Assembly (NCBI GenBank): GCA_028683955.1
Contig: JAQUGR010000008.1
Coordinates: 5,371-69,370, forward strand
From: Bacillota bacterium
GTDB lineage: Bacteria > Bacillota > TC1
Reading direction: 5' to 3'
DNA: 64,000 nt
Within the stretch, counting starts at the first letter, position 1; each line of letters opens with the position of its first letter. The notes beneath the pieces were generated by a model that was not told the DNA's origin, did no database searches, and saw nothing but the letters and a program-made list of their open reading frames with translations. The position numbers were made by a program, and so were the translations under genes. Below, piece by piece: positions 8,556 through 55,111 of the stretch.

Positions 8556-9860
8556 TTATTTTTCTTCCTTAACGTCTGTTATTTCTGCTTTATCAAGTAT
8601 ACTTTGAAGAGCTTTTTCTCTTTTTATACCTTTTGAAAGCATTTTAGTATTTTCAGGTGCTTGGAAATACGTTTCTAACATAGCTTTGTCTTGTCCATAA
8701 ATTTGTGATATCGCATTTATTTCTTTTTCTAGGTCAGCAGGAGTTACTTCGATTTTTTCAGCCATAGCAACTTCATCTAATAAGATATCTCTCTTTATAT
8801 GTTTTTCTGCATTAGCTCTATATTCTGATCTAACTTTTTCTTCAGTCATTCCTGTTAGTTCAAAATATTTTTGTAAATCCATACCTTGTTGTTGTAAATC
8901 ACCTTCAATATCTTTTAAGAACTGATTAGTTCTTTCTTCAATCATAATTTCAGGAACTTCAACTTCAAGTTTTTCAATTGCTAAGTCTAAAGCTTGTGCT
9001 CTTAAAGCATTATCAGCTTGTTGTTGTTTTTGATTAGTAACACTCATTTTTACATCGTTTCTTAATTCTTCTAAAGTATCAAAATCACTAACTTCTTTAG
9101 CAAAGTCATCATTTAATTCAGACAATTTTTTTCTTTTTACTTCATGAGCTAGAACTTTAAACACACTTTCTTTGCCTTTTAAGTCTTCACTGTGATATTC
9201 ATCAGGAAACTTGACATTAACTTCTCTATTTTCTCCTGCTTTTATACCAACTAATTGTTCTTCAAAACCTGGTATAAATGAATTAGAACCTAATTCTAAT
9301 GGGAACTTAGAACCAGTTCCACCATCAAATTTAACTTCATCAACATAACCTTCAAAATCAATTACTACAGTATCTCCATTTTCAGCTGGATCTTCAACTG
9401 TTTCTATTTTTGCAGTTTTAGTTCTCATAGCTTCTATTTCATTATCAATATAGGTTTCATCTAAGTTTATTAATTTTCTTTCTAGTTTAAGGCCTGTATA
9501 ATCTCCTAAAATACCTTTAGGAACTAATTGTAATTCTACAGTAAATACAGCTGGTCCTTTTTTTTCAAAAGATACTATATCAACTTTAGGTCTATCAATA
9601 GGATCTAAGTCTAAATCTAGTAAAGCTTGACTATAAGCTGCTGGTAACATAATATCCATAGCTTCTTCAATAATACTACCTTCACCTACGTGTTTTGATA
9701 ATATTTCTGCTGGCACTTTGCCTTTTCTGAATCCAGGTACAGATACTTTTTGTCCTAGGTTTTGTGACGCCTGTTTATAGGCTTTTTCAACCTCTTGACC
9801 ATCAACAGTTATTTCTACTGTTACTATATTTTTTTCTTGATTAATAATTTTACTTGCCAT
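8556..9860 (-). CDS. tig: Trigger factor
   Basis: The 434-aa product has the ribosome-binding motif GFRKGKVP and an FKBP-type middle domain. It lies upstream of clpP-clpX. Confidence 0.95.
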   Translation of the reverse strand: MASKIINQEKNIVTVEITVDGQEVEKAYKQASQNLGQKVSVPGFRKGKVPAEILSKHVGEGSIIEEAMDIMLPAAYSQALLDLDLDPIDRPKVDIVSFEKKGPAVFTVELQLVPKGILGDYTGLKLERKLINLDETYIDNEIEAMRTKTAKIETVEDPAENGDTVVIDFEGYVDEVKFDGGTGSKFPLELGSNSFIPGFEEQLVGIKAGENREVNVKFPDEYHSEDLKGKESVFKVLAHEVKRKKLSELNDDFAKEVSDFDTLEELRNDVKMSVTNQKQQQADNALRAQALDLAIEKLEVEVPEIMIEERTNQFLKDIEGDLQQQGMDLQKYFELTGMTEEKVRSEYRANAEKHIKRDILLDEVAMAEKIEVTPADLEKEINAISQIYGQDKAMLETYFQAPENTKMLSKGIKREKALQSILDKAEITDVKEEK

Positions 9861-9890
9861 TTTAAGACTCCCTTCATTTTCTAATTAATA

Positions 9891-9919
9891 ATTATACAAT
9901 ATTTTTATGAACCTAACAA
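9891..9919 (-). promoter_or_regulatory. Sigma-A type promoter for tig
   Basis: The minus strand reads TTGTTA, a 17-nt spacer, then TATAAT, ending about 30 nt upstream of the tig ATG. Confidence 0.5.
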
Positions 9920-9930
9920 CTTTAAAAAGA

Positions 9931-9960
9931 AAATACCTCGAATTGGAATTCGAGGTATTT
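9931..9960. terminator. Intrinsic terminator hairpin after the tRNA cluster
   Basis: Inverted repeat AAATACCTCGAATT / AATTCGAGGTATTT, flanked by A and T runs. It begins 6 nt after the tRNA-Gly 3' end. Confidence 0.75.
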
Positions 9961-9965
9961 TTCTA

Positions 9966-10040
9966 TGGAGCGGAAGACGGGATTCGGACCCGCGACCCTC
10001 TCCTTGGCAAGGAGATACTCTACCACTGAGCCACTTCCGC
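9966..10040 (-). tRNA. tRNA-Gly (anticodon GCC), CCA encoded
   Basis: The reverse complement is GCGGAAGTGGCTCAGTGGTAGAGTATCTCCTTGCCAAGGAGAGGGTCGCGGGTCCGAATCCCGTCTTCCGCTCCA. It folds as a cloverleaf with anticodon loop CTTGCCAAG. Confidence 0.93.
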
Positions 10041-10044
10041 GACG

Positions 10045-10130
10045 TGGTGCGGATGAAGGGACTTGAACCCCCACGATCTTACTCACTAGAGCCTAAATCT
10101 AGCGCGTCTGCCAATTCCGCCACATCCGCA
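10045..10130 (-). tRNA. tRNA-Leu (anticodon TAG), long variable arm, CCA encoded
   Basis: The reverse complement is GCGGATGTGGCGGAATTGGCAGACGCGCTAGATTTAGGCTCTAG... The anticodon stem CTAGA/TCTAG encloses the loop TTTAGGC. A class II variable arm is present. Confidence 0.9.
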
Positions 10131-10132
10131 TC

Positions 10133-10208
10133 TGGTGATCCATCCGCGACTCGAACGCGGGACACCCTGATTAAAAGTCAGGTGCTCTACCGACTGAGCT
10201 AATGGATC
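10133..10208 (-). tRNA. tRNA-Lys (anticodon TTT), CCA encoded
   Basis: The reverse complement is GATCCATTAGCTCAGTCGGTAGAGCACCTGACTTTTAATCAGGGTGTCCCGCGTTCGAGTCGCGGATGGATCACCA. Confidence 0.93.
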
Positions 10209-10212
10209 ATCT

Positions 10213-10288
10213 TGGGGTGGATGATGGGATTTGAACCCACGACAACTAGTACCACAAACTAGCGCTCTACCACTGAACTACACCCACC
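10213..10288 (-). tRNA. tRNA-His (anticodon GTG) with extra 5' G(-1), CCA encoded
   Basis: The reverse complement is GGTGGGTGTAGTTCAGTGGTAGAGCGCTAGTTTGTGGTACTAGTTGTCGTGGGTTCAAATCCCATCATCCACCCCA. Confidence 0.9.
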
Positions 10289-10315
10289 ATGTCTGCGCCC
10301 TTAAGCGCAAGAATA

Positions 10316-10344
10316 ATTATATACTTTTTAATAATATATTTCAA
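10316..10344 (-). promoter_or_regulatory. Sigma-A type promoter for the tRNA cluster
   Basis: The minus strand reads TTGAAA, a 17-nt spacer, then TATAAT, about 28 nt upstream of tRNA-His. Confidence 0.55.
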
Positions 10345-10358
10345 GTCTATTTTTAAAA

Positions 10359-11153
10359 TTATTTCATAATTTCAAAATCTGATTTAGGGGCTCCACATAA
10401 AGGACATGTGTAACTGTCTGGCAAGTCTTTAAACTCTATTCCTTCAACTGCAGGATCATGTACATATCCACATACTGTGCAAATATATTTTTCTCCACCT
10501 TCCATGTTTTCCACCTCTTTCTCTTCTTTTATAATTTCATTAACTTGAATTTTTTTCCCACTTTTGATTAATCTAAAGTCACTATAACTTAATGGTAAAA
10601 CATCTTTTTTATTAACATTTATAAAAGCGTCTTCAATAGAACAAACCATTAACCAATGTGTTCCAACATCCATTTTATTTTCCACTTTACAAATCATACC
10701 AGATAATGCATCATCTAACAATACTGGCATACTATTAATTTCATTGTATTGTATTTTTTCAAATTTGTTACGATCTCTTCCTGAAGAAAAACCGAAATTT
10801 GAAATCATTTGAAATCCATCTTGGCCGATTATATTAATTACTAATTTATTTGATTCTAGAACTAATTCGGTTGTGTAATTATTTTTATTTAAACATACGG
10901 CTATCTGACTTGGTTCACTAGTTAGTTGGAAAACTGTATTTGCTGCTTGTCCATTTATCTTACCTTTACTTTCAGTAGTTATTACAAACATTCCATATAT
11001 AATTTGACGTATTGAAGTTTTAATTGCATTAGCATCTTTGTTTTTTTCTTCAACTTGTACAAAATTGGTTTTATCAACTCCACAAACTGGACAAATATCT
11101 ATAGGCTCTTGCCCTTCCATTTCATAACCGCATATTTCACATTTCCACTTCAT
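10359..11153 (-). CDS. Rubredoxin-like Zn-ribbon / flavin reductase / rubredoxin fusion (high-molecular-weight rubredoxin type)
   Basis: The N-terminus has WKCEICGY...CPVCGV. A flavin-reductase-like core occupies the middle. The C-terminus has [12 protein letters not shown]...[15 protein letters not shown] chose the second ATG (11153) because AAAGGAAG lies 7 nt upstream of it. Confidence 0.75.
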
Positions 11154-11247
11154 ATGTCTACTTCCTTTCATTTATCATATTATTTGAATTATACCATTTT
11201 TTTCAATAATAATAAATGCTACAATTATTAATAAAGGAGTTGAAATA

Positions 11248-11616
11248 ATGGATAATTTAAAAAAAGGTTTAGAGATAACTGAAAAAATATGGGGTTTTAA
11301 AAGAGATGATTTAATAACAGAAAATGGTGAATTAGGTGAAAATATATTAAAATATGCTTTCGGTGATATTTATTCTCGAAAAGGTCTTTCCCTTAGAGAT
11401 CGAGAAATAGTTACTATTTCATTTCTAATTGCACAAGGATGTCCTGAATCCCAACTTAGAAACCACTTTTTAGGTGCTTTAAATGTCGGTTTAACCGAGG
11501 ATGAAATAATGGAGATAATCTTACAAGCTCCAATATATAATGGCTATCCTAAAGCAATTATGGCACTTAAAATCCTAAAGTCGATTTCAAAAGATATAAA
11601 AGCGCAAGATGAATAG
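11248..11616 (+). CDS. Carboxymuconolactone decarboxylase (CMD/AhpD-like) family protein
   Basis: The 122-aa product has the CMD-like segment LSLRDREIVTISFLIAQG....L..H. The SD AAAGGAG lies upstream. Confidence 0.65.
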   Translation: MDNLKKGLEITEKIWGFKRDDLITENGELGENILKYAFGDIYSRKGLSLRDREIVTISFLIAQGCPESQLRNHFLGALNVGLTEDEIMEIILQAPIYNGYPKAIMALKILKSISKDIKAQDE

Positions 11617-12280
11617 GATAAAAGAAATAAAAGAAATACTTGTTTCCATTACCTCTTTTCCCATTATATAGGAAAATTAATGGCAAGGTTAAAAGAGATA
11701 TTATTTGCAAAAGATTTGGTATCAATTGAACCTCATTATATTGCATTATAAAATTCAAAGCATTAATTAAGATTAGACTCAAAACAAGTTTTAGCCTACT
11801 ATCTTTTAATAAATAAAACAAAATAATCATAGCTATTCCATACCAACCATAATCAACATTTAATAATTCGCCTCCACTACATATTAACAAAGAAGTTGTT
11901 AGATAAACAAAAGGATTATCTTTATATTTTTTAATTATTATAATTGCTAATAAACCTATCGCTAAAGTAATAAAAATATTTTTATCTAAAATAATGAAAT
12001 CTGTTAGAAATACAAGTATAGAACTTTTATCTACTATAGCCAATGAATATATTAATTGAATTAACAAACCGAATACAAAAATATTTAAAAAATACTTCTT
12101 AATATTTTTTGTGTGTAATGCACCTTCAGTTAAGGCCCAAAAGAAGATTGGTGCAGCCAGTCTTCCTATGCCTCTACCTACAAAATATATAGTTGTACCA
12201 TAATCAAGAAATAATAAAGAAAAATGATCAATAAACATAAATATGGCAGCAATGTATTTTAATTGTGTGTTATTTAACAT
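11567..12280 (-). CDS. TraX family membrane protein
   Basis: This is a polytopic hydrophobic 237-aa protein. The N-terminal LKYIAAIFMFIDH is the characteristic TraX start. Confidence 0.7.
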   Translation of the reverse strand: MLNNTQLKYIAAIFMFIDHFSLLFLDYGTTIYFVGRGIGRLAAPIFFWALTEGALHTKNIKKYFLNIFVFGLLIQLIYSLAIVDKSSILVFLTDFIILDKNIFITLAIGLLAIIIIKKYKDNPFVYLTTSLLICSGGELLNVDYGWYGIAMIILFYLLKDSRLKLVLSLILINALNFIMQYNEVQLIPNLLQIISLLTLPLIFLYNGKRGNGNKYFFYFFYPIHLALLYLLKSTLGF

Positions 12281-40617: not shown

Positions 40618-41361
40618 TTAATCATACTTTAAATTTTTTGAAAACAAACTTCCCAATTCTATTATTTCAACAGAATCATCATCGCTTTTACTTAATTTAT
40701 AAGGAGTGAAAATCAATAAACCTGATCCACTTCTATATTTTTTCAAAACATCAAGGTTATGATTTCTTTCTACATGAAAAGAATCTGTACCTTCTAGCAT
40801 CAAGTCTATGCCTTCATTTATACTCTCATCTTTAAGCAAATAGCTTTCTGCAATACCTAATGATTCTCCTATATCTAATAAAAACTCATGACTAAAGAAG
40901 TTTTCATTAATAATACTAAAATTATCCTTTTTTAATTTAATAAAGTAAATCCAAAGTCCTTCTCTTCCTTTTTGAACCTTCAATTTTTCTTTACTTGCGA
41001 TACTAAACAAATTAATTAAAAATGTAGTTGATGTATTGGGTACTAATGTTTGTTGAAAATCAAAATCAATTTTGAATTCTTCGCTAATAGTTTTAATACA
41101 TCTAATAATCTCTTCAGCAGAATTACTATCTTCAGTAAAAATATTAACCAAACCATTAAAAGGTCTATCTCCACCAATTAATATAATCTCTGCTAACAAA
41201 GTATTAATTTTTTCTTTAACAAGATAATATGGTAATATAATTTCTTTGTCATACTTACCAAGACCAGCCCCAATTGAAATTTCTTGTCCAATCAATTGAT
41301 ATTTAGTTGTAGAAAGTGAATTTATAAAAATATTTCTACCTGGGTATCTTATTTGAATCAC
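40618..41361 (-). CDS. Hypothetical protein (247 aa), probably translationally coupled to metK
   Basis: A long ORF with codon usage typical of the window. It has a GTG start 4 nt after the metK stop (TAA-TGAG-GTG). I could not recognise any family motif. Confidence 0.6.
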   Translation of the reverse strand: MIQIRYPGRNIFINSLSTTKYQLIGQEISIGAGLGKYDKEIILPYYLVKEKINTLLAEIILIGGDRPFNGLVNIFTEDSNSAEEIIRCIKTISEEFKIDFDFQQTLVPNTSTTFLINLFSIASKEKLKVQKGREGLWIYFIKLKKDNFSIINENFFSHEFLLDIGESLGIAESYLLKDESINEGIDLMLEGTDSFHVERNHNLDVLKKYRSGSGLLIFTPYKLSKSDDDSVEIIELGSLFSKNLKYD

Positions 41362-42555: not shown

Positions 42556-43542
42556 CTACCCTTCTATTTTAGCTTTAAGTTCAGTTAAAAGCTCTTCATA
42601 TAAAATTTTATTATCTTTAAAGGCAATTATATCTATATCGCCTTCTTTATTTATTAATTTAACGAATGGTTTAAACCCATTTGTTGATTTATTAATTTCA
42701 CTTAACATTACAATATTAACGCCTGTATTATCAAATAAATATTTTATAGCATCCTCATTATCTATTATGCCATTTATAACTTCAATAATTAATTGATTAT
42801 TAGAGGATAAATCTTTATCTGCAAAAGGTAAATATTTTTCATCAAATTCTGCAAAATATCTTTTGTATTCAATTTTAAAACGTTCGTCTTTTCTAAGACC
42901 AAACCTAGGTATATTAATAGCATCAATAACAAAGTCATATTTGAAGTACTTTGAATTTAACACTACTTCTAATTCTTCTTTATTTTTAACAAATACTATA
43001 TCTTCATTTTTAATAAATGGAACTTTATCAATGTTAGCTGAAGCAATAACACTTACATTTGCTCCGGCTAATATTAAAGATTTTATTAATCCGTTGATAA
43101 GTTCATCGTTTTTATACGTTCCTATATAATGATTATTAGTTAAGAACTCATTAAAATAACCAAGTGTAAATAAAAAGGAATACTCGGACATTTTGTTTCC
43201 TTTTGTTCCAACTTGGATTTTTTCAATTATTAAATCTAGATTATTAAAATCTTCAAAGAAAATTATTTTGTTTTTATTTAACTCAATTAGATTTAGTAAT
43301 TCTTCATCTAATTTATATTTATTCAAATCTTTTCTGTTGGGTCCTATAACAATTAAATCCCAGTCTAATTCATCCATAGTTGATAATTCATCTAAACATG
43401 CAAGTGGTATATAATCATCACTAGTTGAAGTTTTATAAATATATGAATCATAGCCTATTTTTCTTAATTTATAGGCTAATTCTACCATTAAATAGGCTTC
43501 TTTATCCTCAATTATACCCAAGAGAATCTTCCTGCCTATCAT
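42556..43542 (-). CDS. CoaBC-like protein with degenerate catalytic motifs (probable pseudoenzyme)
   Basis: It sits in the gmk-rpoZ-coaBC syntenic slot. By eye the 328-aa product aligns with CoaBC: [15 protein letters not shown] against GKNILLxVSGGIAAYK, and [46 protein letters not shown] against [33 protein letters not shown]...GA.VTLISG. The key motif residues are replaced. Confidence 0.55.
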
Positions 43543-45463: not shown

Positions 45464-45492
45464 AAAAAAGCTTGACTATATTAGTCAAGCTT
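45464..45492 (-). terminator. Intrinsic terminator ending the Tad operon
   Basis: The minus strand reads AAGCTTGACTA-ATA-TAGTCAAGCTT followed by TTTTTCTC. It overlaps the stop codon of the DUF192 gene. Confidence 0.8.
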
Positions 45493-45853
45493 TCTCTTTA
45501 ATTTTAATTTTTTCACCTTTTTTGAGATTTTCAAAACTTCCTGCATTACCCTCAATACAAAAAATGCTATTTTTATGAATTTTAGAAATTCTCCAAGGTA
45601 ACATATTTTTATATATTTCTATAATAGTATTATTCTTATCTATAAATATAACATCTAAATTAATTTTCATAAAAAAAGTATGAATACTATTACAAGGTTT
45701 TATTAATAACCCTTCATCTTTATTTAAATTTTTCTTCCACATTAACCCTTTAAGCCTTTTAAAATAACTATCAGCAATTACCACATTAGCCAATAAATTT
45801 TCATTAACTTCAGTTACTATTTGAATAGTTTTAATTCTTTTCATTTTCAACAT
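45485..45853 (-). CDS. DUF192 domain protein; last gene of the Tad operon
   Basis: RLKGLMWKK......GLLIKPCNSIHTFFMKINLDVIFIDKNNTII fits the DUF192 pattern. The start is uncertain (ATG at 45853 or 45844, or the track start 45892). It overlaps the upstream gene. Confidence 0.7.
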   Translation of the reverse strand: MLKMKRIKTIQIVTEVNENLLANVVIADSYFKRLKGLMWKKNLNKDEGLLIKPCNSIHTFFMKINLDVIFIDKNNTIIEIYKNMLPWRISKIHKNSIFCIEGNAGSFENLKKGEKIKIKEKA

Positions 45854-46931
45854 ATCTAAATAGTATATCTCCTGAATCAAATTTACTTCCATCCACTATA
45901 AAGTGTTTACTATAAACAAATTCACCAAAATTTAAAATTCCAGGTTCTGTTGCAGAAACTCTAAGTTTTATAGGATTACGATCTTTATTAAAAGATCTAT
46001 ACCCTTCCAAAAAGTGTGGTAAATTCATTTCAGAAACTTTTTCAATAATTAATTGAAAAGTATAAGAACTATCACCAATGTAAAAATCAGCCTTCTTATA
46101 ATTCTGATCAAAACTAATCATTAATCTTCTTTTATGTTTTCTTTTTAAATCCAAATAATTTATAAATTTTTCATCTTCTCTACTAGTTGGTTTATAATAA
46201 AGTTTTCCTTTGATAATTAATCTAGATTTAATCCTGAATCCATATAAAATTTGTCCTATTGCAAAAAACATAAATAATAATATTGTAAAACCACCAATAA
46301 TTAATTGTAAAATTGTCAGATTACCAAAAAAACCATTTATAATAGATGTTGATTCAGGTGTTATTGAATTCTGAACCTTGTTATTAATAAAAGTTTTTTC
46401 GACAGGTTCCAAAGTCCACTTTTGGTTTGCTGTTCCTGCATATGGTTCTGCGGTTACTAAGCTTCCAGCATTTAAATCTCCTTCTACCGTAGTTATCGCG
46501 GCATTGGTTAAATAATTAATAAAAACTACTGTTCCATCACTTAAAATTCTAATATCCCATAACTGATTAAACTTACTAGAAAAGTCCCATTGTTGTAAAA
46601 ATGCTCCTGGTTCTTTAGAATCATCCTTAATCTCAATAATTTTAAGATTTTTTTCCATACTTAAAACATATCGTAAAGAAACATCTTTACTTATTTTAAA
46701 TACTTGATTAGAATTATCGGCCCCAAGTGCTTGGACGCATAAAGCCCCATTAGCATTACTACCATCTTGAATATCAAGATATAATCCGCTATATACATTT
46801 CTGATTTTATATAATCCATTATCAATATTATTAAACTCTGCTTTCACATTATTATTTCCTGTAAATATATACATACAGCCTATAAATAATAAAAATATTA
46901 ATAATAGAGATAATTTTGAGAATAATTTCAT
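45831..46931 (-). CDS. Membrane protein: signal/anchor, ricin-type beta-trefoil lectin ectodomain, TM helix, and an uncharacterised 134-aa cytoplasmic domain
   Basis: Q-x-W/F repeats lie at aa 76-78 (QVF), 123-125 (QLW) and 170-172 (QKW). Hydrophobic segments span aa 5-24 and 201-232. The SD AGGAAAGGA lies upstream, and the gene starts 15 nt after the tadC stop. Confidence 0.7.
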   Translation of the reverse strand: MKLFSKLSLLLIFLLFIGCMYIFTGNNNVKAEFNNIDNGLYKIRNVYSGLYLDIQDGSNANGALCVQALGADNSNQVFKISKDVSLRYVLSMEKNLKIIEIKDDSKEPGAFLQQWDFSSKFNQLWDIRILSDGTVVFINYLTNAAITTVEGDLNAGSLVTAEPYAGTANQKWTLEPVEKTFINNKVQNSITPESTSIINGFFGNLTILQLIIGGFTILLFMFFAIGQILYGFRIKSRLIIKGKLYYKPTSREDEKFINYLDLKRKHKRRLMISFDQNYKKADFYIGDSSYTFQLIIEKVSEMNLPHFLEGYRSFNKDRNPIKLRVSATEPGILNFGEFVYSKHFIVDGSKFDSGDILFRYVENEKN

Positions 46932-46946
46932 ATTATAGTCCTTTCC

Positions 46947-47879
46947 TTATAGAATACCTTTTAAACTGTCCATAGCATTTAATGCTGCTGGACCAAGTAT
47001 AACTATAAATATAGCGGGAAACATGAAAAAAAGCAACGGGAATATCATTTTTATTGGTAGTTTCATAGACTTTTCTTCTGCTCTTTGTTTTCTTTTTTGT
47101 CGTAACATATTGGATTGAATCCTTAACATATTAGCTATGTTTGATCCTAGCTGCTCAGCTTGGATTATGGCTGTTATAAAACTATTTAAATCTTCAACAC
47201 CAGTTCTTTTATAAACTGCTCTTAGTGCTTCTTCTCTTTCTTTACCTTTTGAAATATCATCTAAAGCCCATTTTAACTCATTACTTAATTCACCTTTAAT
47301 TTTATCAGTTGCTCTTTTCATTGACATATCAAAGCCAAGACCAGCTTCAACAGAGACATACAATAAATCTAGAATATCAGGTAATTTATTTTGTATTTCT
47401 AATGCTCTATTTTTCGCTTTTGTTCTTAATTGAAAATAAGGTAATAAAAATCCTATAATAGCTATAAGCAACATATATAACGGATTTAGAAAACCAATCA
47501 TTATAAAAACTGCCCCAAAAATGATTAGCATTAAAAAGGAAACAACAAATTGTTGGGCTAAAATATTACTAGTTGTCATCTTCTTATAATTTCCAGACTG
47601 ATAAATAATATTTTCATAATTATCCTTCATTGATTGCGGAGTCATCCTTGCTAGAAAATTAAGAAATTTTTGATAAATTGGTGTCCCAACACGATCCAAG
47701 AATGATTTTCTAAACTCATCATCTTCAGGATTTTCGCTAGCAAGAGGTTGAATTTTATTAAGTCTATCTTCCATTAAATATTTTTTTTGAAATATACTAG
47801 TATATAATAATATAAATAATGAGGCTACTGTCAAACCACCTGCAAATGCAATTAAAACTGCCATGTTATAGTACCTCAC
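46947..47879 (-). CDS. tadC: Tad pilus platform protein TadC (T2SS-F family)
   Basis: The 310-aa product has the T2SSF-type domain LPDILDLLYVSVEAGLGFDMSM flanked by TM helices. Confidence 0.85.
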   Translation of the reverse strand: MRYYNMAVLIAFAGGLTVASLFILLYTSIFQKKYLMEDRLNKIQPLASENPEDDEFRKSFLDRVGTPIYQKFLNFLARMTPQSMKDNYENIIYQSGNYKKMTTSNILAQQFVVSFLMLIIFGAVFIMIGFLNPLYMLLIAIIGFLLPYFQLRTKAKNRALEIQNKLPDILDLLYVSVEAGLGFDMSMKRATDKIKGELSNELKWALDDISKGKEREEALRAVYKRTGVEDLNSFITAIIQAEQLGSNIANMLRIQSNMLRQKRKQRAEEKSMKLPIKMIFPLLFFMFPAIFIVILGPAALNAMDSLKGIL

Positions 47880-47882
47880 TTT

Positions 47883-48875
47883 CTAGACTTTTAAATCTAA
47901 TAGTTTTACCAAAATAAATATTCCTATGGCTTGCATTAATAATGCAATTCCTAAAAGAACATTACCTATTAAAGTTGTAAATAAAGGCATCATGAAATCT
48001 TTATTTAATAAATATAATATTATTACAATGAAAAATGGTATACCACCTACAACTAAGGCTGATAATTTAGCTTGAGCAGTCATAGTTCTTATATCCCCTT
48101 TTAGTTTTACTCTTTCTCTTATTGTATTTGAAATTGTATCTAAGATTTCTGACAAATTACCACCAACTTGTCTCTGAATAAGTACGGCTGTTACCAATAT
48201 TTCCACATCTTCATCATCAGTTCTTTCAGCAAAATCTTTTAAAGCTTCTTCCATATCTTTGCCAAGAACATTATCATGAACAACTTTATTAAAGTCATCA
48301 GATATTGGTGGTTCCATTTCTTTTGCTGCAATTACCATAGATTGATTAAAACTTAATCCTGCTCTTAGTCCATTTGCTAGAACACTCAAGGCAACTGGTA
48401 ATTGATTATTTAGTTTTTTTGCTCTTGATTTTTTAACATTTTTAACATACATAATCGGAATTTGAAAACCAATTAAAAACCCAAATATAAATACTATAAT
48501 CTTTACTAATATAAATCCATCAAATAACAAATATAAAATTATTCCTAGTATTAAGCCAATTATTATACATATACCCAACAATTCTTCCGGCTTAATTAAT
48601 AACCTTGCCCTTGATAAAAGAATTTTCTTTTTTTCAAAATACTTATCTAAAGGAACTATATTACCAATAATTCCAACAAAAGTAACTTTTTCATTTTTCT
48701 TACCAACTTTTGTTACCTCTGTTTCCTTATAATCATTACTGGCATTACCGGTAGTATATCTTTCGAGTCTATTTTTAATTACTATCTTATTTTCATTTAG
48801 TGCTATATAAATTAGTAAAAAGACAGATGTTACTAATAATGTAATAAAAAACATTAATCCTAACAAAAATTCCAC
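47883..48875 (-). CDS. tadB: Tad pilus platform protein TadB (T2SS-F family)
   Basis: The 330-aa product has LPVALSVLANGLRAGLSFNQSM and N- and C-terminal TM helices. Confidence 0.85.
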   Translation of the reverse strand: MEFLLGLMFFITLLVTSVFLLIYIALNENKIVIKNRLERYTTGNASNDYKETEVTKVGKKNEKVTFVGIIGNIVPLDKYFEKKKILLSRARLLIKPEELLGICIIIGLILGIILYLLFDGFILVKIIVFIFGFLIGFQIPIMYVKNVKKSRAKKLNNQLPVALSVLANGLRAGLSFNQSMVIAAKEMEPPISDDFNKVVHDNVLGKDMEEALKDFAERTDDEDVEILVTAVLIQRQVGGNLSEILDTISNTIRERVKLKGDIRTMTAQAKLSALVVGGIPFFIVIILYLLNKDFMMPLFTTLIGNVLLGIALLMQAIGIFILVKLLDLKV

Positions 48876-48894
48876 CTCCTAAATACTTTATTAA

Positions 48895-50250
48895 TTAATC
48901 TGCACATTTAAATATTGAAGATTGTACATTTTCACCATGTGCTCTAAGTTTTTCCATAAATGACGGTACTATACCTGTTGGCAAATAGTGACCAATTACT
49001 TTATTTGTTTCATCAAATCCTTCTTGATTGTAACGGAATATATCTTGTAAAGTTATTGTATCATTTTCCATACCTATTACTTCAGTAATCTTTGTAATTT
49101 TTCTTGTACCATCGTTAAACCTAGATATTTGAATAATTAAATCTAAGGCAGAAGAAATTTGTTCCCTTATTGCTCTAGAAGGTAAATCCATACCAGCCAT
49201 TAAAACCATTGTTTCTATCCTAGAAAGTGCATCCCTTGGACTGTTGGAGTGAACTGTGGTTATAGATCCATCATGACCAGTATTCATAGCTTGTAGCATG
49301 TCTAAAGCTTCTCCACTCCTTACCTCCCCAACTATTATCCTATCTGGTCTCATCCTCAAAGAATTTACTACTAAATCTCTTATTGTTATTCTACCTTTAC
49401 CTTCTATATTTGCAGTCCTACTTTCCAAAGTTACAACGTGATCTTGTTGAAGCTGCATCTCAGCAGCATCCTCTATTGTAACAATTCTTTCATCATGTGA
49501 AATAAAACCTGAAATAACATTCATCAATGTTGTTTTACCACTACCAGTACCACCTGATACTATAATATTCAGCCTACCTCGAACACATGAACGCAGAAAC
49601 TTTGCCATACTCATATTTAGTGAACCAAAAGTTATTAAATCTTCTAAACCATATGGGTCAGTTGAAAATTTTCTTATTGTAATTGTAGGTCCTTTAATAG
49701 CCAAAGGTGGAATAATTATGTTTACACGAGAACCATCTGGAAGTCTTGCATCAACCATTGGGCTACTTTCATCTACTCTTCTTCCAATGGGTGCAACAAT
49801 TTTATCAATAGTATGTAAAACATGTTGATTATTCCTGAAAACTTTATCTGTCTTTTCTATCTTACCTAATCTCTCAATATAAATTGAATTATAGCCGTTA
49901 ACCATTACTTCAGTTATTGTTGGATCTTCAAGCAATGATGTTATTGGTCCAAAAGCAATGATTTCATCCAATACAAGTTTAGCTATTTTTTGTTTATCTC
50001 CGGGTAAAAAATGTTTATTGCTTTTTCCAGCCAACTCATTCATTGTAGACATAATCTGTTCTTCAAGAATTTTCAAATCCTCATTATTATTCTTATTTGG
50101 AGTAAATGTTAAATCATCTATTACTCCCTCAAGTACGATTATTGCAAAATCTTCGAATTCTTTTTTTCTTTTTTCTTGAATGTCTTCAGTTGGTTTTTTG
50201 TCATCATTTATTACTTCATTTTGATTTGTTCCAAAATTTACAAAGTTCAT
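48895..50250 (-). CDS. tadA: Tad pilus secretion ATPase CpaF/TadA
   Basis: Walker A GGTGSGKTT, then the Asp box and His box (RPDRIIVGEVRSGEALDMLQAMNTGHDGSITTVHSN). Confidence 0.93.
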   Translation of the reverse strand: MNFVNFGTNQNEVINDDKKPTEDIQEKRKKEFEDFAIIVLEGVIDDLTFTPNKNNNEDLKILEEQIMSTMNELAGKSNKHFLPGDKQKIAKLVLDEIIAFGPITSLLEDPTITEVMVNGYNSIYIERLGKIEKTDKVFRNNQHVLHTIDKIVAPIGRRVDESSPMVDARLPDGSRVNIIIPPLAIKGPTITIRKFSTDPYGLEDLITFGSLNMSMAKFLRSCVRGRLNIIVSGGTGSGKTTLMNVISGFISHDERIVTIEDAAEMQLQQDHVVTLESRTANIEGKGRITIRDLVVNSLRMRPDRIIVGEVRSGEALDMLQAMNTGHDGSITTVHSNSPRDALSRIETMVLMAGMDLPSRAIREQISSALDLIIQISRFNDGTRKITKITEVIGMENDTITLQDIFRYNQEGFDETNKVIGHYLPTGIVPSFMEKLRAHGENVQSSIFKCAD

Positions 50251-50272
50251 AATACAACCCTCTCATATACCA

Positions 50273-51433
50273 CTATTTTTCTTCACCTACAATATTGCTA
50301 ACAATATTACTGAAGCTTTTACCTATTTCACTTCTAGGATATTTCTGTACATATGGTATTCCTTGATTTAAAGAAGCCATAACTTTCAGATAATCATCAG
50401 GCACTTTATAAAATATATCAAATCCTAATATCTTTTCAATATCATTAGACCTTATATCACTGTTTTTAGAAAATTTATTAAGTACAATGTTGATTTTATT
50501 TTTAGGGTAATTGAAATCCGTTAAAGTTGTAATTGCACCTTTAATATTTTTGACAGACATAATTTCTGGTGTTGTAATTAAAAATAGTTTTTCAGAAAAT
50601 ACAAAAGCTGGATTAGTAGTTTCCGTAAATCTAGATGACATATCAATAATAATATAATCATATGCAGATTGTAATGTTTTTATTATTATCTGAATATGTT
50701 CAGTATTTATAAAATCATTAACATTAGCTTCTTTACTAGCAGCTAAAACTTTTAGACCTGACTCATGATTAGTTAAAAATGTTTCAATATAATCTGGATC
50801 TATACTTTTAATATCATCAATAACATCAATAATAGTAAATTTTGGCACTATATCTAGAGCTAGAGAAATATTTCCATAATCTAAATCAAAATCCAATAAA
50901 CAGACTTTTTTATTGGTTTCTTTTAATAAAGTTATAGCTAAATTAGTTGCAAAAAATGTTTTACCTGTGCCACCTTTTGTACTGAAAACTGAATAAACTT
51001 GTCCATATCCACTTTTCTTTTTCTTAGTTATATCAACCTTACGGTGATGTTCTAATCTTTTCTTAGTTAGCTTATTAGCCTTATATATTGAATCTACAAG
51101 TTTATTTGGTTTTACAGGAAGTAAAATAACATCCTTTGCACCTGAAAAAATCGCTTGATACATAGTATCTTCATTAATTTCTTTTTCAAGAATAATAGTA
51201 GCTTTATCAATAAATTCTGTTGAAAGATTTTCTGCTATTTCATATCCTCCACCATTAAAACTGTTAGAAACTAGAATAACATCTACAAAGTCGCTTTCTA
51301 TTATTGCAATAGCTTCCTCAAGATCATCTGGTGTTCTTGCAATTTCAATATAATCAATATTGGCTAGTGCGTTTTCTATGTCAAATCTTTCTTCAAGATT
51401 GTTGTCTAAAATAATTACTTTGATTTTATCCAT
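50273..51433 (-). CDS. tadZ: TadZ/CpaE: atypical (pseudo) receiver domain fused to a ParA/MinD-like ATPase
   Basis: The N-terminus has a REC-like fold. The C-terminus has the deviant Walker A STKGGTGKTF. I set the start at the ATG at 51433, preceded by GGAAAGGAAGG. Confidence 0.85.
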   Translation of the reverse strand: MDKIKVIILDNNLEERFDIENALANIDYIEIARTPDDLEEAIAIIESDFVDVILVSNSFNGGGYEIAENLSTEFIDKATIILEKEINEDTMYQAIFSGAKDVILLPVKPNKLVDSIYKANKLTKKRLEHHRKVDITKKKKSGYGQVYSVFSTKGGTGKTFFATNLAITLLKETNKKVCLLDFDLDYGNISLALDIVPKFTIIDVIDDIKSIDPDYIETFLTNHESGLKVLAASKEANVNDFINTEHIQIIIKTLQSAYDYIIIDMSSRFTETTNPAFVFSEKLFLITTPEIMSVKNIKGAITTLTDFNYPKNKINIVLNKFSKNSDIRSNDIEKILGFDIFYKVPDDYLKVMASLNQGIPYVQKYPRSEIGKSFSNIVSNIVGEEK

Positions 51434-51438
51434 TGAAA

Positions 51439-52158
51439 TTACCTTCCTTTCCAACTAGCAATATTATTATCACCATAAGATGGTAATGTAACTATTTTGT
51501 TATCTGTAGGATTTCTCAAGATTACTGCTATGGGGTTACTCATATTTAATGCGTAAGCAACCACTTCAGCCTGTGCTGGAGTAACCAATATAGTCAGTGA
51601 CTCTGTTAAGCCACTGTTTATTGCTTGTAAATCTAAATTATTACCAGCATTAACACCTTTTTCTAAGACAATGATATTTTGAAGTTTAGTAGTTGTTATA
51701 TTTTTCCCGCTAACTACATCATTAATCAATATATCTATTTTATCTCCAATTGAAACGTACCCAGCTACACCAGTAGTTTCTTTAATAGGTATAGAAATAG
51801 CCCTCATATTTTCCGGTATAGTATAAGATACTGAAGCATTTGCTTGTCCTATAGCTAATCTCTCGGTTATAATTTGCTCCCCAGATATAATATTTGTACT
51901 TGTTATTTGACCTACAGCTTCACTTATACTTCTAATAGCATTAGCTTGAATAGCACTTGCTGGAATTTCTTTAACTGTAACCATATTATTAGTTATCTCT
52001 GTATTAGCAGGTATATCACTAATTGCGACAATAACTTCACTGTTTTTCAAACTAACTGGTATTTGGTTACTGCTATTATTAATATAGCTTACTGTTAAAA
52101 ATGCTGTAATTAAACCTGCGATAATAGCTATAATATAGATTCTCTTTTTAATTTTCAT
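51439..52158 (-). CDS. cpaB: Flp pilus assembly protein CpaB/RcpC (SAF domain)
   Basis: An N-terminal TM is followed by a SAF-like segment (VVAISDIPANTEIT) and a beta-rich C-terminus. Confidence 0.8.
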   Translation of the reverse strand: MKIKKRIYIIAIIAGLITAFLTVSYINNSSNQIPVSLKNSEVIVAISDIPANTEITNNMVTVKEIPASAIQANAIRSISEAVGQITSTNIISGEQIITERLAIGQANASVSYTIPENMRAISIPIKETTGVAGYVSIGDKIDILINDVVSGKNITTTKLQNIIVLEKGVNAGNNLDLQAINSGLTESLTILVTPAQAEVVAYALNMSNPIAVILRNPTDNKIVTLPSYGDNNIASWKGR

Positions 52159-52180
52159 TGGATAATCACTCTCCCTTATA

Positions 52181-53296
52181 TTATTGAATTAGTTTACTGT
52201 ATTTTGCACCACTTGTGATTGTTAATATATTACCATCTTGATCATTTTTTTCAATAATCACCTCAAGTTCTCTTACTTCTCCAGTGAATTTACCGTATAT
52301 TGTTCCTTTTTCGTAGTCATTTCCTTCATTATCCGCTGGACTATATGTTTTACCTGTACCTATTTTAGTATAATTTGAGCCTAATAAAGCTTCTGGTGAG
52401 CCTGTATTGGTTTTTGTCATCACATCAATTATTTCATATACTGCAAATGATTTAATTTGAAAATATACTGTATTTCCTGAACTGCTATAAAATTCTGCAA
52501 TAGGAACTAGTCCATACATATAAGCTCTTCGGTCTGTAGGAGTTTCTAATTTTTGTGCATTTTTCATTCTTGTTTCAACAGAACCTATAACAGACTGAGC
52601 AACACCACTTTTTCCTTCAAACACTGTATCTAATGCCAATGTTATTTTAGTAGGAACACCTTCAATTGCTTCATTTATAATATTTTGTCCATTCCAAGCA
52701 GGATCTAGGTAAATATATCCTCTTTGATTTGGAAATAATGAATCATTAAAAGACATTTTTCCACTATGCAGTGTATTACTACTTAAAAATAAATCTGGTG
52801 TTGTATATAATGGCAACAACTGTCCTGCTGTAACATTAGTAACATAACCCCAAGTAGCTATAGCTACTCCATTTACATCCAAATTAAACTTATCAATAAA
52901 CCTAAAGAAAATTAATTTTTCATCAGTAGTTACTTTTACTTTTATTACATCTCTATAGTCAGTCGTACCATCAGCTAACTTAATATTCATTTTTTCAATA
53001 ACAACTTCTGGTTCACCTTGTGCTCCATTTTCAATTGCTATATTTTTTGCAATAGTAATCGCTCTTGCTTTTATTTGACTTATAGAAGATTCACTACTTT
53101 CACTTAATGTCTTTTCCATCTCTTTAGCCCCTGCTAATGCTGCTGCATCTGCAGATGTTATCATCTGTTTTCTTGTACTATAGACAAATCCTACATCAAT
53201 TACAACAGCAGAGAATACTAATATTACGAATAAGAATATCAACATCGTAAAAATACTTACTGATCCTCTATTGCTTTTCATGAATTCTTTTTTCAT
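52181..53296 (-). CDS. TadG-like pilus-associated protein (Tad N-terminal domain)
   Basis: RGSVSIFTMLIFLFVILVFSAVVIDVGFVYSTRKQMITSADAAALAGA is the TadE/G-like N-terminal signature. The product is 371 aa. Confidence 0.75.
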   Translation of the reverse strand: MKKEFMKSNRGSVSIFTMLIFLFVILVFSAVVIDVGFVYSTRKQMITSADAAALAGAKEMEKTLSESSESSISQIKARAITIAKNIAIENGAQGEPEVVIEKMNIKLADGTTDYRDVIKVKVTTDEKLIFFRFIDKFNLDVNGVAIATWGYVTNVTAGQLLPLYTTPDLFLSSNTLHSGKMSFNDSLFPNQRGYIYLDPAWNGQNIINEAIEGVPTKITLALDTVFEGKSGVAQSVIGSVETRMKNAQKLETPTDRRAYMYGLVPIAEFYSSSGNTVYFQIKSFAVYEIIDVMTKTNTGSPEALLGSNYTKIGTGKTYSPADNEGNDYEKGTIYGKFTGEVRELEVIIEKNDQDGNILTITSGAKYSKLIQ

Positions 53297-53308
53297 AATA
53301 ATCCCCTC

Positions 53309-53728
53309 CTACTCAATTCTCATGATGGCTTTTGCATTAATTTCAAATGGGTCATCAACAAATATACCAATTAAAGGTTTTACATTACCTTTAATTTCTA
53401 CAATTGCATTTCTCACATTATTAACAGTATCTTCTTCCTCATAATAATTATAGTGAGTACTATCATTAACTAAGGTTATGCCACTAGTACCTGTAACAGC
53501 TTTATCAGCTGCGTCGAAGGCTCTTGAATCTCTACTAACAGTTGAAACTACTGCAGCCCGTACCCCTTCTCTTGCTGCACTGGTCAAAGTAATCTTTGCA
53601 TTTAGTAACCATCCATATTCTAATATTCCTAATATAAATATTAATAATATAGGGATAACTAAAGCAAACTCAACTAATGACTGCCCACTTTCCTTATTTT
53701 CTCTTTTTAACGATCTTATTAATTTCAT
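53309..53728 (-). CDS. tadE: TadE-like pseudopilin
   Basis: ESGQSLVEFALVIPILL contains the G/xxxxEF processing motif, followed by LTSAAREGVRAA. I set the start at the ATG at 53728, preceded by GGAGAGGTG. Confidence 0.85.
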   Translation of the reverse strand: MKLIRSLKRENKESGQSLVEFALVIPILLIFILGILEYGWLLNAKITLTSAAREGVRAAVVSTVSRDSRAFDAADKAVTGTSGITLVNDSTHYNYYEEEDTVNNVRNAIVEIKGNVKPLIGIFVDDPFEINAKAIMRIE

Positions 53729-53746
53729 TACAAACACCTCTCCACT

Positions 53747-54328
53747 TTATAGTAGATTGCTTACATTTCCAATTAAAACAGCTATTGTGCCAAATGCTAT
53801 TGGTATTGCATATGGAATATATAAATCTGGGTTTTCCTTTTTTACACTATCAAAATATGTGAATATTCTTCTTGCTGTTTTATTACCAAAATTTAAATAT
53901 ATTATTTTCGTTATAGGTCTAATGAACATACCAAACATATTTATTATTGTTTGCAATAATTGTTTTTTATATATTATATATACTACAACTATAATGCCTC
54001 CAGCTAATCCGGCTGCAACTAAAGAATTAAAAGTAAAATTCAAACCTTTAAGTGCACCAATAGCAGCCATAAGTTTTAAATCTCCAGCTCCCATAAACCC
54101 GATAATGAATGGGATTAAGAAAATAAAGAAACCTAAAAGAAATCCGTAAAAACTATCTTGCAAACCAATAAATCCACCTTTTACCGTCATTAAAATAAAA
54201 CCACTAAGTAACGCCGGAATCGTATATTTATTAGGAATAATCTTTAATTTCACATCAGTGTAACTAGCTAATATCAATAACATAACTAACAATATATCTA
54301 TACTTATTTCTACGATTAACTCAAACAT
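53747..54328 (-). CDS. tadV: Prepilin peptidase TadV/CpaA (A24 family)
   Basis: The 193-aa polytopic protein has Asp contexts YTDVKLKIIPN and MGAGDLKLMAAIG. Confidence 0.85.
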   Translation of the reverse strand: MFELIVEISIDILLVMLLILASYTDVKLKIIPNKYTIPALLSGFILMTVKGGFIGLQDSFYGFLLGFFIFLIPFIIGFMGAGDLKLMAAIGALKGLNFTFNSLVAAGLAGGIIVVVYIIYKKQLLQTIINMFGMFIRPITKIIYLNFGNKTARRIFTYFDSVKKENPDLYIPYAIPIAFGTIAVLIGNVSNLL

Positions 54329-54344
54329 CTTACTCCTTAATTAA

Positions 54345-54533
54345 TTATTCAGTAATAGTATCAACTGCTGTATTTATTTCACCATCAAGACCACCAAATA
54401 CCCCTACGATACCATCACCAAATATAGTTAGGGCTGCAACAGCAACAACTATAATTAAAACAATAAGTAAACCATATTCAACCAAACCTTGACCACTTTC
54501 ATTTAATATAATTCTTTTAAATAAATCTTTCAT
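54345..54533 (-). CDS. flp: Flp family type IVb pilin (copy 1, 62 aa)
   Basis: MKDLFKRIILNESGQGLVEYGLLIVLIIV contains the Flp G/xxxxEY motif. The ATG at 54533 is preceded by AAGGAGTG. Confidence 0.9.
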   Translation of the reverse strand: MKDLFKRIILNESGQGLVEYGLLIVLIIVVAVAALTIFGDGIVGVFGGLDGEINTAVDTITE

Positions 54534-54589
54534 AATAAACACTCCTTACTTTAATTACAAGATATCTTATTACTACTCTATTTACTTAT

Positions 54590-54618
54590 ATTATCACTTT
54601 TTATTGACCTTTAGTCAA
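54590..54618 (-). promoter_or_regulatory. Candidate internal promoter in front of flp copy 1
   Basis: The minus strand reads TTGACT, a 17-nt spacer, then GATAAT. These hexamers and the spacing are the same as at the flp copy 2 promoter. The -35 lies inside the palindrome TTGAC-CTTTA-GTCAA. Confidence 0.45.
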
Positions 54619-54687
54619 TAATTATAAACAATTTACTAGTCTCATAAAAGATATATCTAATCACTTTTTATGAATTTAACTTAATAA

Positions 54688-54721
54688 AAGAATAAAGCCT
54701 CCAAAAGGAGGCTTTATTCTT
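54688..54721 (-). terminator. Strong hairpin (partial terminator) between the two flp genes
   Basis: A 15-bp perfect stem AAGAATAAAGCCTCC-TTTT-GGAGGCTTTATTCTT, followed by TTATT. Confidence 0.65.
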
Positions 54722-54738
54722 AATAATTAAACTTAATA

Positions 54739-54927
54739 TTAATCTCCAGCTACTGCTCCAGCAGCATCAGTTACTTGACCATCGATACCACCGAATAATG
54801 CTGCTATGCTATCTCCGAATACAGTCAATGCTGCAACTGCGATAACAATAATCAATACGATTAAAAGACCATATTCCACTAAACCTTGTCCACTTTCGTC
54901 TTTCCATAGTTTTTGTAATAATTTCAT
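54739..54927 (-). CDS. flp: Flp family type IVb pilin (copy 2, 62 aa)
   Basis: MKLLQKLWKDESGQGLVEYGLLIVLIIV. The ATG at 54927 is preceded by GGGGAG. The 34-codon N-terminal extension in the track contains the promoter. Confidence 0.9.
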   Translation of the reverse strand: MKLLQKLWKDESGQGLVEYGLLIVLIIVIAVAALTVFGDSIAALFGGIDGQVTDAAGAVAGD

Positions 54928-54987
54928 CTCAATCTCCCCTTTTCGTGTTTCTAAAATACACCTATATTTATTAGGTTTCTTATATAT

Positions 54988-55016
54988 ATTATCATACCTA
55001 TCACTTATATAGTCAA
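54988..55016 (-). promoter_or_regulatory. Sigma-A type promoter of the Tad/Flp operon
   Basis: The minus strand reads TTGACT, a 17-nt spacer, then GATAAT, about 60 nt upstream of the flp copy 2 ATG. Confidence 0.55.
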
Positions 55017-55111
55017 GGTTTTTAAACATATTTATATATTTGCGATCAATTTATCAATACAACCCTAACCTAAACTTAAGATAAACTTTACACCATCTAC
55101 TAATTACTTTT

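Follow-up and report, generated by a model that had tools for sequence, protein, structure and literature searches.

What is a lectin gene doing inside an operon for pilus assembly? The question is raised by one minus-strand gene (45831..46931) in a stretch of 64,000 nucleotides from a Bacillota bacterium (contig JAQUGR010000008.1, positions 5,371 to 69,370), called the window here. Its neighbours encode a tight adherence (Tad) system. Tad, or Flp, pili drive adhesion and colonisation. To our knowledge, the Tad machines of Gram-positive bacteria are without secretin, pilotin, and other outer-membrane parts, and their machinery is poorly defined. At about even confidence, we take the gene to be the lineage-specific version, with a ricin ectodomain, of a conserved and undescribed accessory family of Tad (Flp) systems in Firmicutes, whose products would work as scaffolds or anchors.

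The protein is 100% identical to NCBI MDD2371731.1, labelled 'RICIN domain-containing protein' and coming from a Firmicutes metagenome-assembled genome (MAG). A preliminary description of this DNA had proposed a ricin lectin, a transmembrane helix, and a cytoplasmic tail. This layout agrees with the Pfam ricin match, the hydropathy, and the beta-rich tail predicted by AlphaFold2. By its sequence profile, the ectodomain truly belongs to the ricin-type beta-trefoil family. It matches PF14200 (RicinB_lectin_2; E=3.8e-22, 79.2 bits against a gathering cut-off of 25.6) and, over residues 41-172, PF00652 (Ricin_B_lectin; E=2.7e-12, 47.4 bits against a cut-off of 29). The ectodomain has a three-fold repeat, and each repeat closes in Q-x-W/F at the places read earlier (QVF 76-78, QLW 123-125, and QKW 170-172). 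Residues Q76, Q123, W125, Q170, K171, and W172 are invariant across 18 homologues. The conserved D53/N73/Q76 and Y164/N169/Q170 suggest that the alpha and gamma sugar sites are intact. No second open reading frame (ORF) with a ricin domain was found within the window.

The N-terminus appears to be a cleavable Sec signal. Its hydrophobic segment ends in V-K-A|E, with A31 invariant in the 18 homologues, and cleavage is likely after V-K-A. The transmembrane helix was located with a Kyte-Doolittle window taken on the homologue P0005; in the window protein, the hydrophobic stretch spans about residues 203-232. AlphaFold2 draws a helix at residues 192-231, in a single-sequence model of the whole protein that is uninformative (predicted local distance difference test, pLDDT, of 39.8). 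A K/R-rich segment, RIKSRLIIKGK, lies directly C-terminal of the helix. Because a Sec-type signal stands before the helix and this flank after it, the positive-inside rule would put the lectin outside and the tail in the cytoplasm. We infer an N-out, C-in topology. A linker of about 25 residues separates the lectin (about 145 residues) from the helix, and strand 1 of the tail begins about 8 residues past it.

The conserved element of this protein is the tail. A full-length search returned 18 proteins of the same architecture (55-100% identity, the window's own included). In this clade, the mean pairwise identity is 78% in the tail, 67% in the ricin domain, 43% in the transmembrane helix, and 23% in the linker. 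Word-indexed searches, with the tail alone and with a 47-sequence tail profile, recovered just the fragment P0001. An exhaustive HMMER search with the tail alone gave 67 proteins at E<=1e-3, with 14 at E<=1e-10. The database consisted of 1.84 billion cluster representatives, and each match represents a cluster at 50% identity. By phmmer, the tail reaches members without ricin, down to E=2.8e-20. With these representatives, and as the best-conserved region of its protein, the tail is not the orphan that the preliminary description had made of it.

No Pfam or NCBIfam model matches the tail, either in the window protein (residues 233-366) or in 72 family members. NCBI labels the proteins only as 'RICIN domain-containing' or 'VWA domain-containing'. 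A cultivable carrier of a family gene is Youngiibacter fragilis 232.1 (ETA82089.1 / WP_278279600.1). The tail is C-terminal in all 67 representatives. Nearly all full-length members have an N-terminal signal peptide and, in a hydropathy scan of 63 members, a single hydrophobic helix just upstream of the tail. The part outside is exchanged. The commonest form carries a VWA domain, in which D-x-S-x-S is intact, and about 450 further residues (proteins of about 840-870 residues), shorter VWA forms have 440-660 residues, and ricin forms have 356-372. In the VWA member P0020, this metal ion-dependent adhesion site (MIDAS) motif is intact ('IDVSGSM'). P0038, of 186 residues, consists of the transmembrane helix and the tail, without ectodomain. 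The tail defines an undescribed protein family, whose members have one transmembrane helix and, about 8 residues later, this domain of roughly 130 residues. Ricin is one among its interchangeable ectodomains, next to VWA with repeats, short VWA, and none.

We surveyed the gene neighbourhood in 22 fetched loci, scanned with a hidden Markov model of the tail and with the TadA, TadB, TadC, and DUF192 proteins of the window. About a dozen lineages are represented in them, most of them from metagenomes; narrower alignments gave two genome and four metagenome loci. The family model scores 1e-38 to 1e-58 in these loci. A tail-family gene lies directly 3' of tadC in 11 of the 11 lineages having upstream sequence. 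The loci of distant members have differing flanks, and in every one the family gene comes after tadA-tadB-tadC (Table 1). The recurrence past tadC considered in the preliminary description was found, although the association with tadC belongs to the tail and not to the lectin. DUF192 comes next downstream in 9 of the 12 lineages having downstream sequence. The overlap is usually of 4-20 nucleotides, and the family gene is usually translationally coupled to this cytoplasmic DUF192 gene.

The tail was modelled with AlphaFold2 on an alignment of 72 sequences (A3). The model is an 11-strand beta-sandwich with a mean pLDDT of 86.3 and a predicted template modelling score of 0.79. When it was compared with the PDB by Foldseek, FHA domains occupied all the top 50 places, including those of TIFA, KIF1A, Pml1, Ki67, GarA, OdhI, and DgcB. 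The match to Ki67 has the highest target-normalised template modelling score (0.71), with a root-mean-square deviation of 3.2. Ranks 29, 37, and 41 are the cytoplasmic FHA-like domains of PscD/YscD from type III secretion systems (6uid, 4d9v, and 4a0e). Rank 47 is the core unit of a type VIIb secretion system, with a probability of 0.72, and the other 49 matches have 0.95-1.0, most of them about 1.0.

The residues with which FHA domains recognize phosphothreonine seem to be replaced. By strand order, the G-R after strand 3 corresponds to S273-F274, conserved as [ST]-F in the family. The S-x-x-H before strand 5 falls on S289-Y-T-F292 (family consensus x-Y-x-[YF]), and the N-G after strand 6 on P330-G331, which is invariant in the family. 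A loose FHA-like layout without Gly-Arg and Ser-x-x-His had been noticed earlier; both the fold and the missing residues are borne out by these comparisons. Judging from the model, the tail is an FHA-fold domain that has almost certainly lost phosphothreonine recognition. A PilZ domain was also considered, from the resemblance of R233-x-x-x-R237 to RxxxR. It was rejected, since the motif is unconserved (KVKPD in P0019 and MVGPL in P0020) and the fold search gives FHA.

Two further elements were seen in the tail region. An insertion at residues 71-90 of the tail (residues 303-322 of the protein, about 45966-46025 of the window, minus strand) has the conserved pattern F-x-[EQ]-G-[WY]-[RK]-[AS]-[LF]. 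It is the sole low-confidence part of the model (pLDDT 51-64). Because it is conserved yet not confidently folded, it is a candidate partner-binding element. Most VWA-type and bare members also carry a terminal peptide, G-x-N-[IV]-L-E-G-[KR]-[IVMF], about 15-25 residues past the FHA-like domain. In alignments A2 and A3, this peptide is seen in P0020, P0023, P0027, P0028, and P0038 among others; possibly it serves for docking, as a short linear motif. The ricin-type members, the window protein included, are without it.

According to Pfam assignments, a full tad operon of the Firmicute type is encoded on the minus strand of the window (Table 1). The spacer behind tadC, once read, agrees with the earlier claim that the gene follows at 15 nucleotides with a Shine-Dalgarno motif of its own. 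The DUF192 gene overlaps its 3' end by 14-20 nucleotides. This gene probably starts at ATG 45844 or TTG 45850, although its longest ORF begins at 45892, and its product is without signal peptide. In the literature, DUF192 is noted only as a gene of unexplained role at the 3' end of tad operons in Gram-positive bacteria (PMC12786226). The minus-strand scan found no terminator-like site from the flp genes to the end of the DUF192 gene, as had been said of the stretch before the hairpin. This hairpin (45467-45493) is the sole strong one in the terminator scan of the operon region and is likely the terminator of the tad operon. Promoter-like matches within the operon are at background (78 against 66 +/- 8.5 expected) and are uninformative on an independent transcript.

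Table 1. Coordinates of the gene, its domains, and the tad operon in the window, followed by the surveyed loci of distant family members.
Feature	Position or locus	Strand	Basis or remark
Whole gene, 366 residues + stop, ATG start	45831..46931	minus	ORF list; signal peptide, ricin lectin, transmembrane helix, FHA-like tail
Predicted Sec signal peptide, residues 1-31	46839..46931	minus	hydrophobic residues 7-24; pattern-based
Predicted extracytoplasmic ricin-type beta-trefoil lectin, residues 35-172	46416..46829	minus	Pfam PF14200 + PF00652
Predicted single transmembrane helix, about residues 201-232	46236..46331	minus	hydropathy; AlphaFold2 helix
Predicted cytoplasmic FHA-fold domain, residues 233-366 (134 residues)	45834..46235	minus	homologues, AlphaFold2, Foldseek
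tadC-to-ricin-gene spacer, 15 nucleotides, GGAAAGGACTATAAT, with AGGA Shine-Dalgarno-like motif	46932..46946	minus	sequence reading
tadC (T2SSF platform protein)	46947..47879	minus	Pfam T2SSF E=1.4e-20
tadB	47883-48875	minus	Pfam
tadA/cpaF	48895-50250	minus	Pfam
tadZ/cpaE	50273-51454	minus	Pfam
rcpC/cpaB	51439-52158	minus	Pfam
tadG-like	52181-53296	minus	Pfam
tadE	53309-53737	minus	Pfam
Prepilin peptidase	53747-54328	minus	Pfam
flp, second copy	54345-54542	minus	Pfam
flp, first copy	54739-55029	minus	Pfam
DUF192 gene (COG1430)	45485..45850	minus	Pfam PF02643 E=2.5e-20
12-bp palindromic hairpin, then T-run on minus strand	45467..45493		terminator scan; directly past DUF192 stop codon
P0020 (VWA, 856 residues)	L008		family gene after tadA-tadB-tadC
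P0021 (ricin; tail 35-38% identical to window tail)	L010		family gene after tadA-tadB-tadC
P0024 (ricin; tail 35-38% identical to window tail)	L011		family gene after tadA-tadB-tadC
P0038 (bare, without ectodomain)	L012, L013		family gene after tadA-tadB-tadC
Dethiobacteria MAG	L014		family gene after tadA-tadB-tadC
Syntrophomonadaceae MAG	L015		family gene after tadA-tadB-tadC
P0034	L016		family gene after tadA-tadB-tadC
P0076 (VWA, 440 residues)	L017		family gene after tadA-tadB-tadC
Youngiibacter-type P0101	L018		family gene after tadA-tadB-tadC
Metagenome locus	L020		family gene after tadA-tadB-tadC

The two tandem flp genes have a common prepilin/transmembrane core, 'ESGQGLVEYGLLIVLIIV'. 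In the upstream copy, the 96-residue ORF is probably too long, because its homologues have 55-66 residues; the true start is likely the internal 'MKLLQKLW...'. A promoter-like TTGACT-17-GATAAT precedes each copy (55016-54988 and 54618-54590). Elsewhere on the minus strand, two conserved and uncharacterised proteins (328 residues at 42556-43542 and 247 residues at 40618-41361) are encoded between rpoZ, metK, and pyrR. Neither has a Pfam match in any syntenic relative, and they are unrelated to the finding on the ricin gene.

Other loci of the survey have peculiarities of their own. In L016, the member P0034 (3183-4295) is an aberrant protein of 370 residues with Flg_new-like sequence between its signal/transmembrane region and the tail. 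These repeats resemble those of a downstream ORF in the same locus, so the gene may be a recombinant or an assembly chimera. The contig ends with no DUF192 gene seen. Directly past DUF192, L015 (the Syntrophomonadaceae MAG) has an EAL-domain cyclic di-GMP phosphodiesterase (10981-11751), and L017 has a second, shorter ATPase of the T2SSE family (356 residues, 9711-10781). A weak TadA-like match follows DUF192 in L014 (11576-12685). These extra genes hint at cyclic di-GMP control or a second motor at some loci.

In two ricin-type relatives, other surface proteins with ricin repeats are encoded close to the tad locus. The first is a glucosaminidase that carries RicinB and Flg_new repeats (L011, 16337-18202). 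The second is a Peptidase_C1 protein of 1039 residues with lectin and cadherin-like domains (L010, 11779-14898). They suggest that ricin modules commonly serve for targeting to the wall or surface in the lineage of the ricin-type relatives. The presence of ricin repeats in these two enzymes, the glucosaminidase and the cysteine peptidase, is consistent with wall binding by this module.

How does the protein compare with known systems? Phospho-independent FHA-like domains act as scaffolds in YscD/PrgH of type III and EssC of type VII secretion systems. The YscD/PscD/PrgH proteins (PF16697, Yop-YscD_cpl) resemble the family in being a bitopic inner-membrane part of an envelope-spanning nanomachine. 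In both, a membrane-proximal cytoplasmic FHA fold is without the phosphothreonine-binding residues; it is a docking scaffold in YscD-type proteins, and we propose the same for the tail. However, the topology is mirrored. The window protein would run from ectodomain through transmembrane helix to FHA-like domain (N-out, C-in), whereas YscD runs from FHA through the membrane to a periplasmic ring. YscD has ring-building motifs instead of a lectin or VWA ectodomain and belongs to a type III machine instead of a Tad machine. No PF16697 match and no sequence similarity to YscD were found in the window protein or the 72 members. The window protein is analogous to YscD, not homologous.

With the canonical FHA domains (PF00498; GarA, Ki67, KIF1A, and TIFA), the tail shares the 11-strand beta-sandwich. 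It differs in having no profile match, in the apparent replacement of G-R, S-x-x-H, and N-G, and in an insertion of about 20 residues with F-x-[EQ]-G-[WY] between strands 5 and 6. FHA domains are fused N-terminally to the Tad ATPases of class III CpaF and Myxococcus KilF (PMC12019362; PMC8460266). Like the family, these fusions associate FHA with the Tad motor (PMC12019362, PMC8460266). In them the domain is part of the ATPase, whereas the tail is membrane-anchored and separate from it. Canonical FHA proteins also occur near the Tad-like systems of Myxococcus and Bdellovibrio (PMC8460266; bioRxiv 2026.07.08.737194). Another parallel is found in the archaellum regulators ArnA (FHA) and ArnB (vWA) of Sulfolobus, where the machine of a type IV filament is likewise served by FHA and VWA modules (PMC4858521). 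Most tail-family members have the VWA and the FHA-like domain in one chain. In contrast, ArnA and ArnB are soluble, cytoplasmic, phospho-regulated, and encoded outside the filament locus; in the family, the VWA or ricin domain would be extracytoplasmic, and the FHA-like domain has probably lost its phosphothreonine site.

The ectodomain shares the (QxW)3-like repeats of other ricin-type lectins (R-type, CBM13-like; PF14200/PF00652) and lies above their gathering threshold. However, it is not carried on an enzyme or toxin. The transmembrane helix joins it to an FHA-like domain predicted in the cytoplasm, and its gene is part of a pilus operon. The Tad pseudopilins of the TadG/VWA type are also encoded in Tad loci and can carry adhesive domains of VWA type. 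The window protein differs from TadG in lacking a class III prepilin leader and in having a Sec signal and a C-terminal transmembrane anchor. A minor pilin or TadG-like protein was rejected for these reasons, and the TadG-like gene is a separate one (52181..53296). Canonical Tad components are all encoded apart from the ricin gene (46947..55029), and the N-terminus of the ricin protein is Sec-type, not G/XXXXEY. Among the models of Flp, TadV, TadE/F/G, RcpC, and TadZ/A/B/C, none matches the window protein, which is recognized by ricin models only. As the preliminary description had said, the protein is not any canonical Tad component.

Full-text literature shows Tad loci adjoining T7SSg and T7SSh clusters. 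Full-text searches found no description of a membrane FHA-like Tad family. The protein is a true ricin-lectin member; its tail is FHA-like by fold, and neither sequence nor motifs are those of an FHA domain. We regard it as a probable accessory component, not described before, that brings known folds into a known machine.

We propose the following role. The protein would be made along with TadB and TadC, the platform proteins. Lying against the inner membrane face, the FHA-like domain would offer the motor/platform complex a place to dock, independently of phosphorylation. The candidate partners are TadA, TadZ, the cytoplasmic domains of TadB/C, and DUF192. Being so near the inner leaflet, the domain would be positioned for the cytoplasmic domains of TadB/TadC, the membrane-facing side of TadA/TadZ, or DUF192. 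The exchangeable ectodomain (lectin, VWA with Ig-like repeats, or none) would tie the machine to ligands of the envelope. For the window lectin, the ligand may be a glycan of the cell-wall zone, such as wall glycopolymers and possibly glycosylated pilins; a place within this zone follows from the short linker. Because the bare member stands at this place in the operon too, the core work would be done by the transmembrane helix and the tail, with the ectodomain as an add-on. A more specific version, which we hold tentatively and on the unlikely side, makes the family the subunit that couples monoderm Tad machines to the envelope, for alignment or as a stator. The tail would clamp TadA/TadZ/TadBC, possibly with DUF192, and the ectodomain would be fixed to wall polymers.

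The same parts could also make an outside-in sensor. The ectodomain would bind a glycan (a protein ligand in the VWA forms) and signal through the transmembrane helix, and the FHA-like domain would switch TadA/TadZ, so that a ligand would gate the assembly or retraction of the pilus. Both ectodomain types, ricin and VWA with intact MIDAS, are ligand-binding modules, and signalling is a typical role of FHA domains. FHA proteins are found clustered with Tad-like systems for which a trigger by contact is supposed (PMC8460266; bioRxiv 2026.07.08.737194), and one relative (L015) has its EAL gene directly past DUF192. However, P0038, which has no ectodomain, keeps the operon position, so ligand sensing is unneeded for the core role. 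The roughly 8 residues between helix and tail leave little room for a signalling linker, and the phosphothreonine-binding residues are absent. In the family loci inspected (window clade, L008, and L010-L013), there is no kinase or phosphatase gene. We consider a sensor rather unlikely. Since ricin is one of several interchangeable ectodomains, the glycan sensing suggested in the preliminary description cannot be what the module does at its core, and may at most be an add-on specific to the lineage. The wall- or glycan-anchoring accessory, its other suggestion, would fit better.

The tail could instead be a classical phospho-dependent adaptor, which would recognize a phosphothreonine of TadA, TadZ, or some other protein and be served by a Ser/Thr kinase encoded elsewhere. 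Its FHA fold would allow this, and canonical FHA domains are present in class III CpaF and in KilF. We find it improbable, as the Arg, Ser, His, and Asn positions seem, by strand order, to be replaced by [ST]-F, Y-x-[YF], and P-G. No member matches the Pfam FHA model at E<=10, and the comparison with GarA by hhalign gives a probability of only 0.9%. Still more improbable, to the point of deserving almost no credence, is a passenger gene: an ordinary surface lectin or adhesin that stands in the operon by chance, with no tie to the pilus. Ricin surface enzymes are common in related genomes, such as the glucosaminidase of L011 and the Peptidase_C1-ricin protein of L010. Nevertheless, the conserved element is the tail and not the lectin, and the slot directly past tadC is kept across class-level diversity and differing flanks. 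The spacing is also tight, with 15 nucleotides upstream and an overlapping gene downstream.

Several points weigh against the scaffold or anchor model. The FHA assignment of the tail depends on a single predicted model, whose Foldseek matches have modest E-values (best 1.8e-3) and query-normalised template modelling scores of 0.45-0.56. FHA is unseen by any sequence or profile method: the Pfam search of the 72 members, the hhalign comparison of the family profile with the FHA domain of GarA (sequence verified against PDB 6i2p), and a sequence-profile search of the PDB with the tail, which gave chance matches only (MARK kinases and eL38; E of about 0.05-0.4). The FHA motifs were placed by the order of the strands and not by superposing structures. 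Metagenomic contigs supply much of the neighbourhood evidence. The window clade is syntenic over recD2, the tad operon, yicC, gmk, rpoZ, and onwards. With these housekeeping flanks included in the full synteny, its 18 members count as a single observation. DUF192 is not downstream in L016, L019 (where tadE and tadG come next), and L020. The binding partners of the tail are candidates by inference, and a bitopic receptor role is also possible.

The finding bears on the study of Tad systems. A conserved, unannotated membrane component beside the platform genes is a candidate for scaffolding, wall anchoring, or regulation in monoderm Tad machines. Its tail is a definable new domain for databases. 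As a sequence-cryptic FHA-fold family, it would bring the theme of the phospho-independent FHA scaffold, seen in YscD of type III and EssC of type VII secretion systems, to type IV filaments. The swapping of ectodomains (VWA, ricin, or none) is a natural experiment on the contribution of the outside part. If the envelope-coupling version is true, this subunit would replace the secretin-side components that are absent from Gram-positive bacteria.

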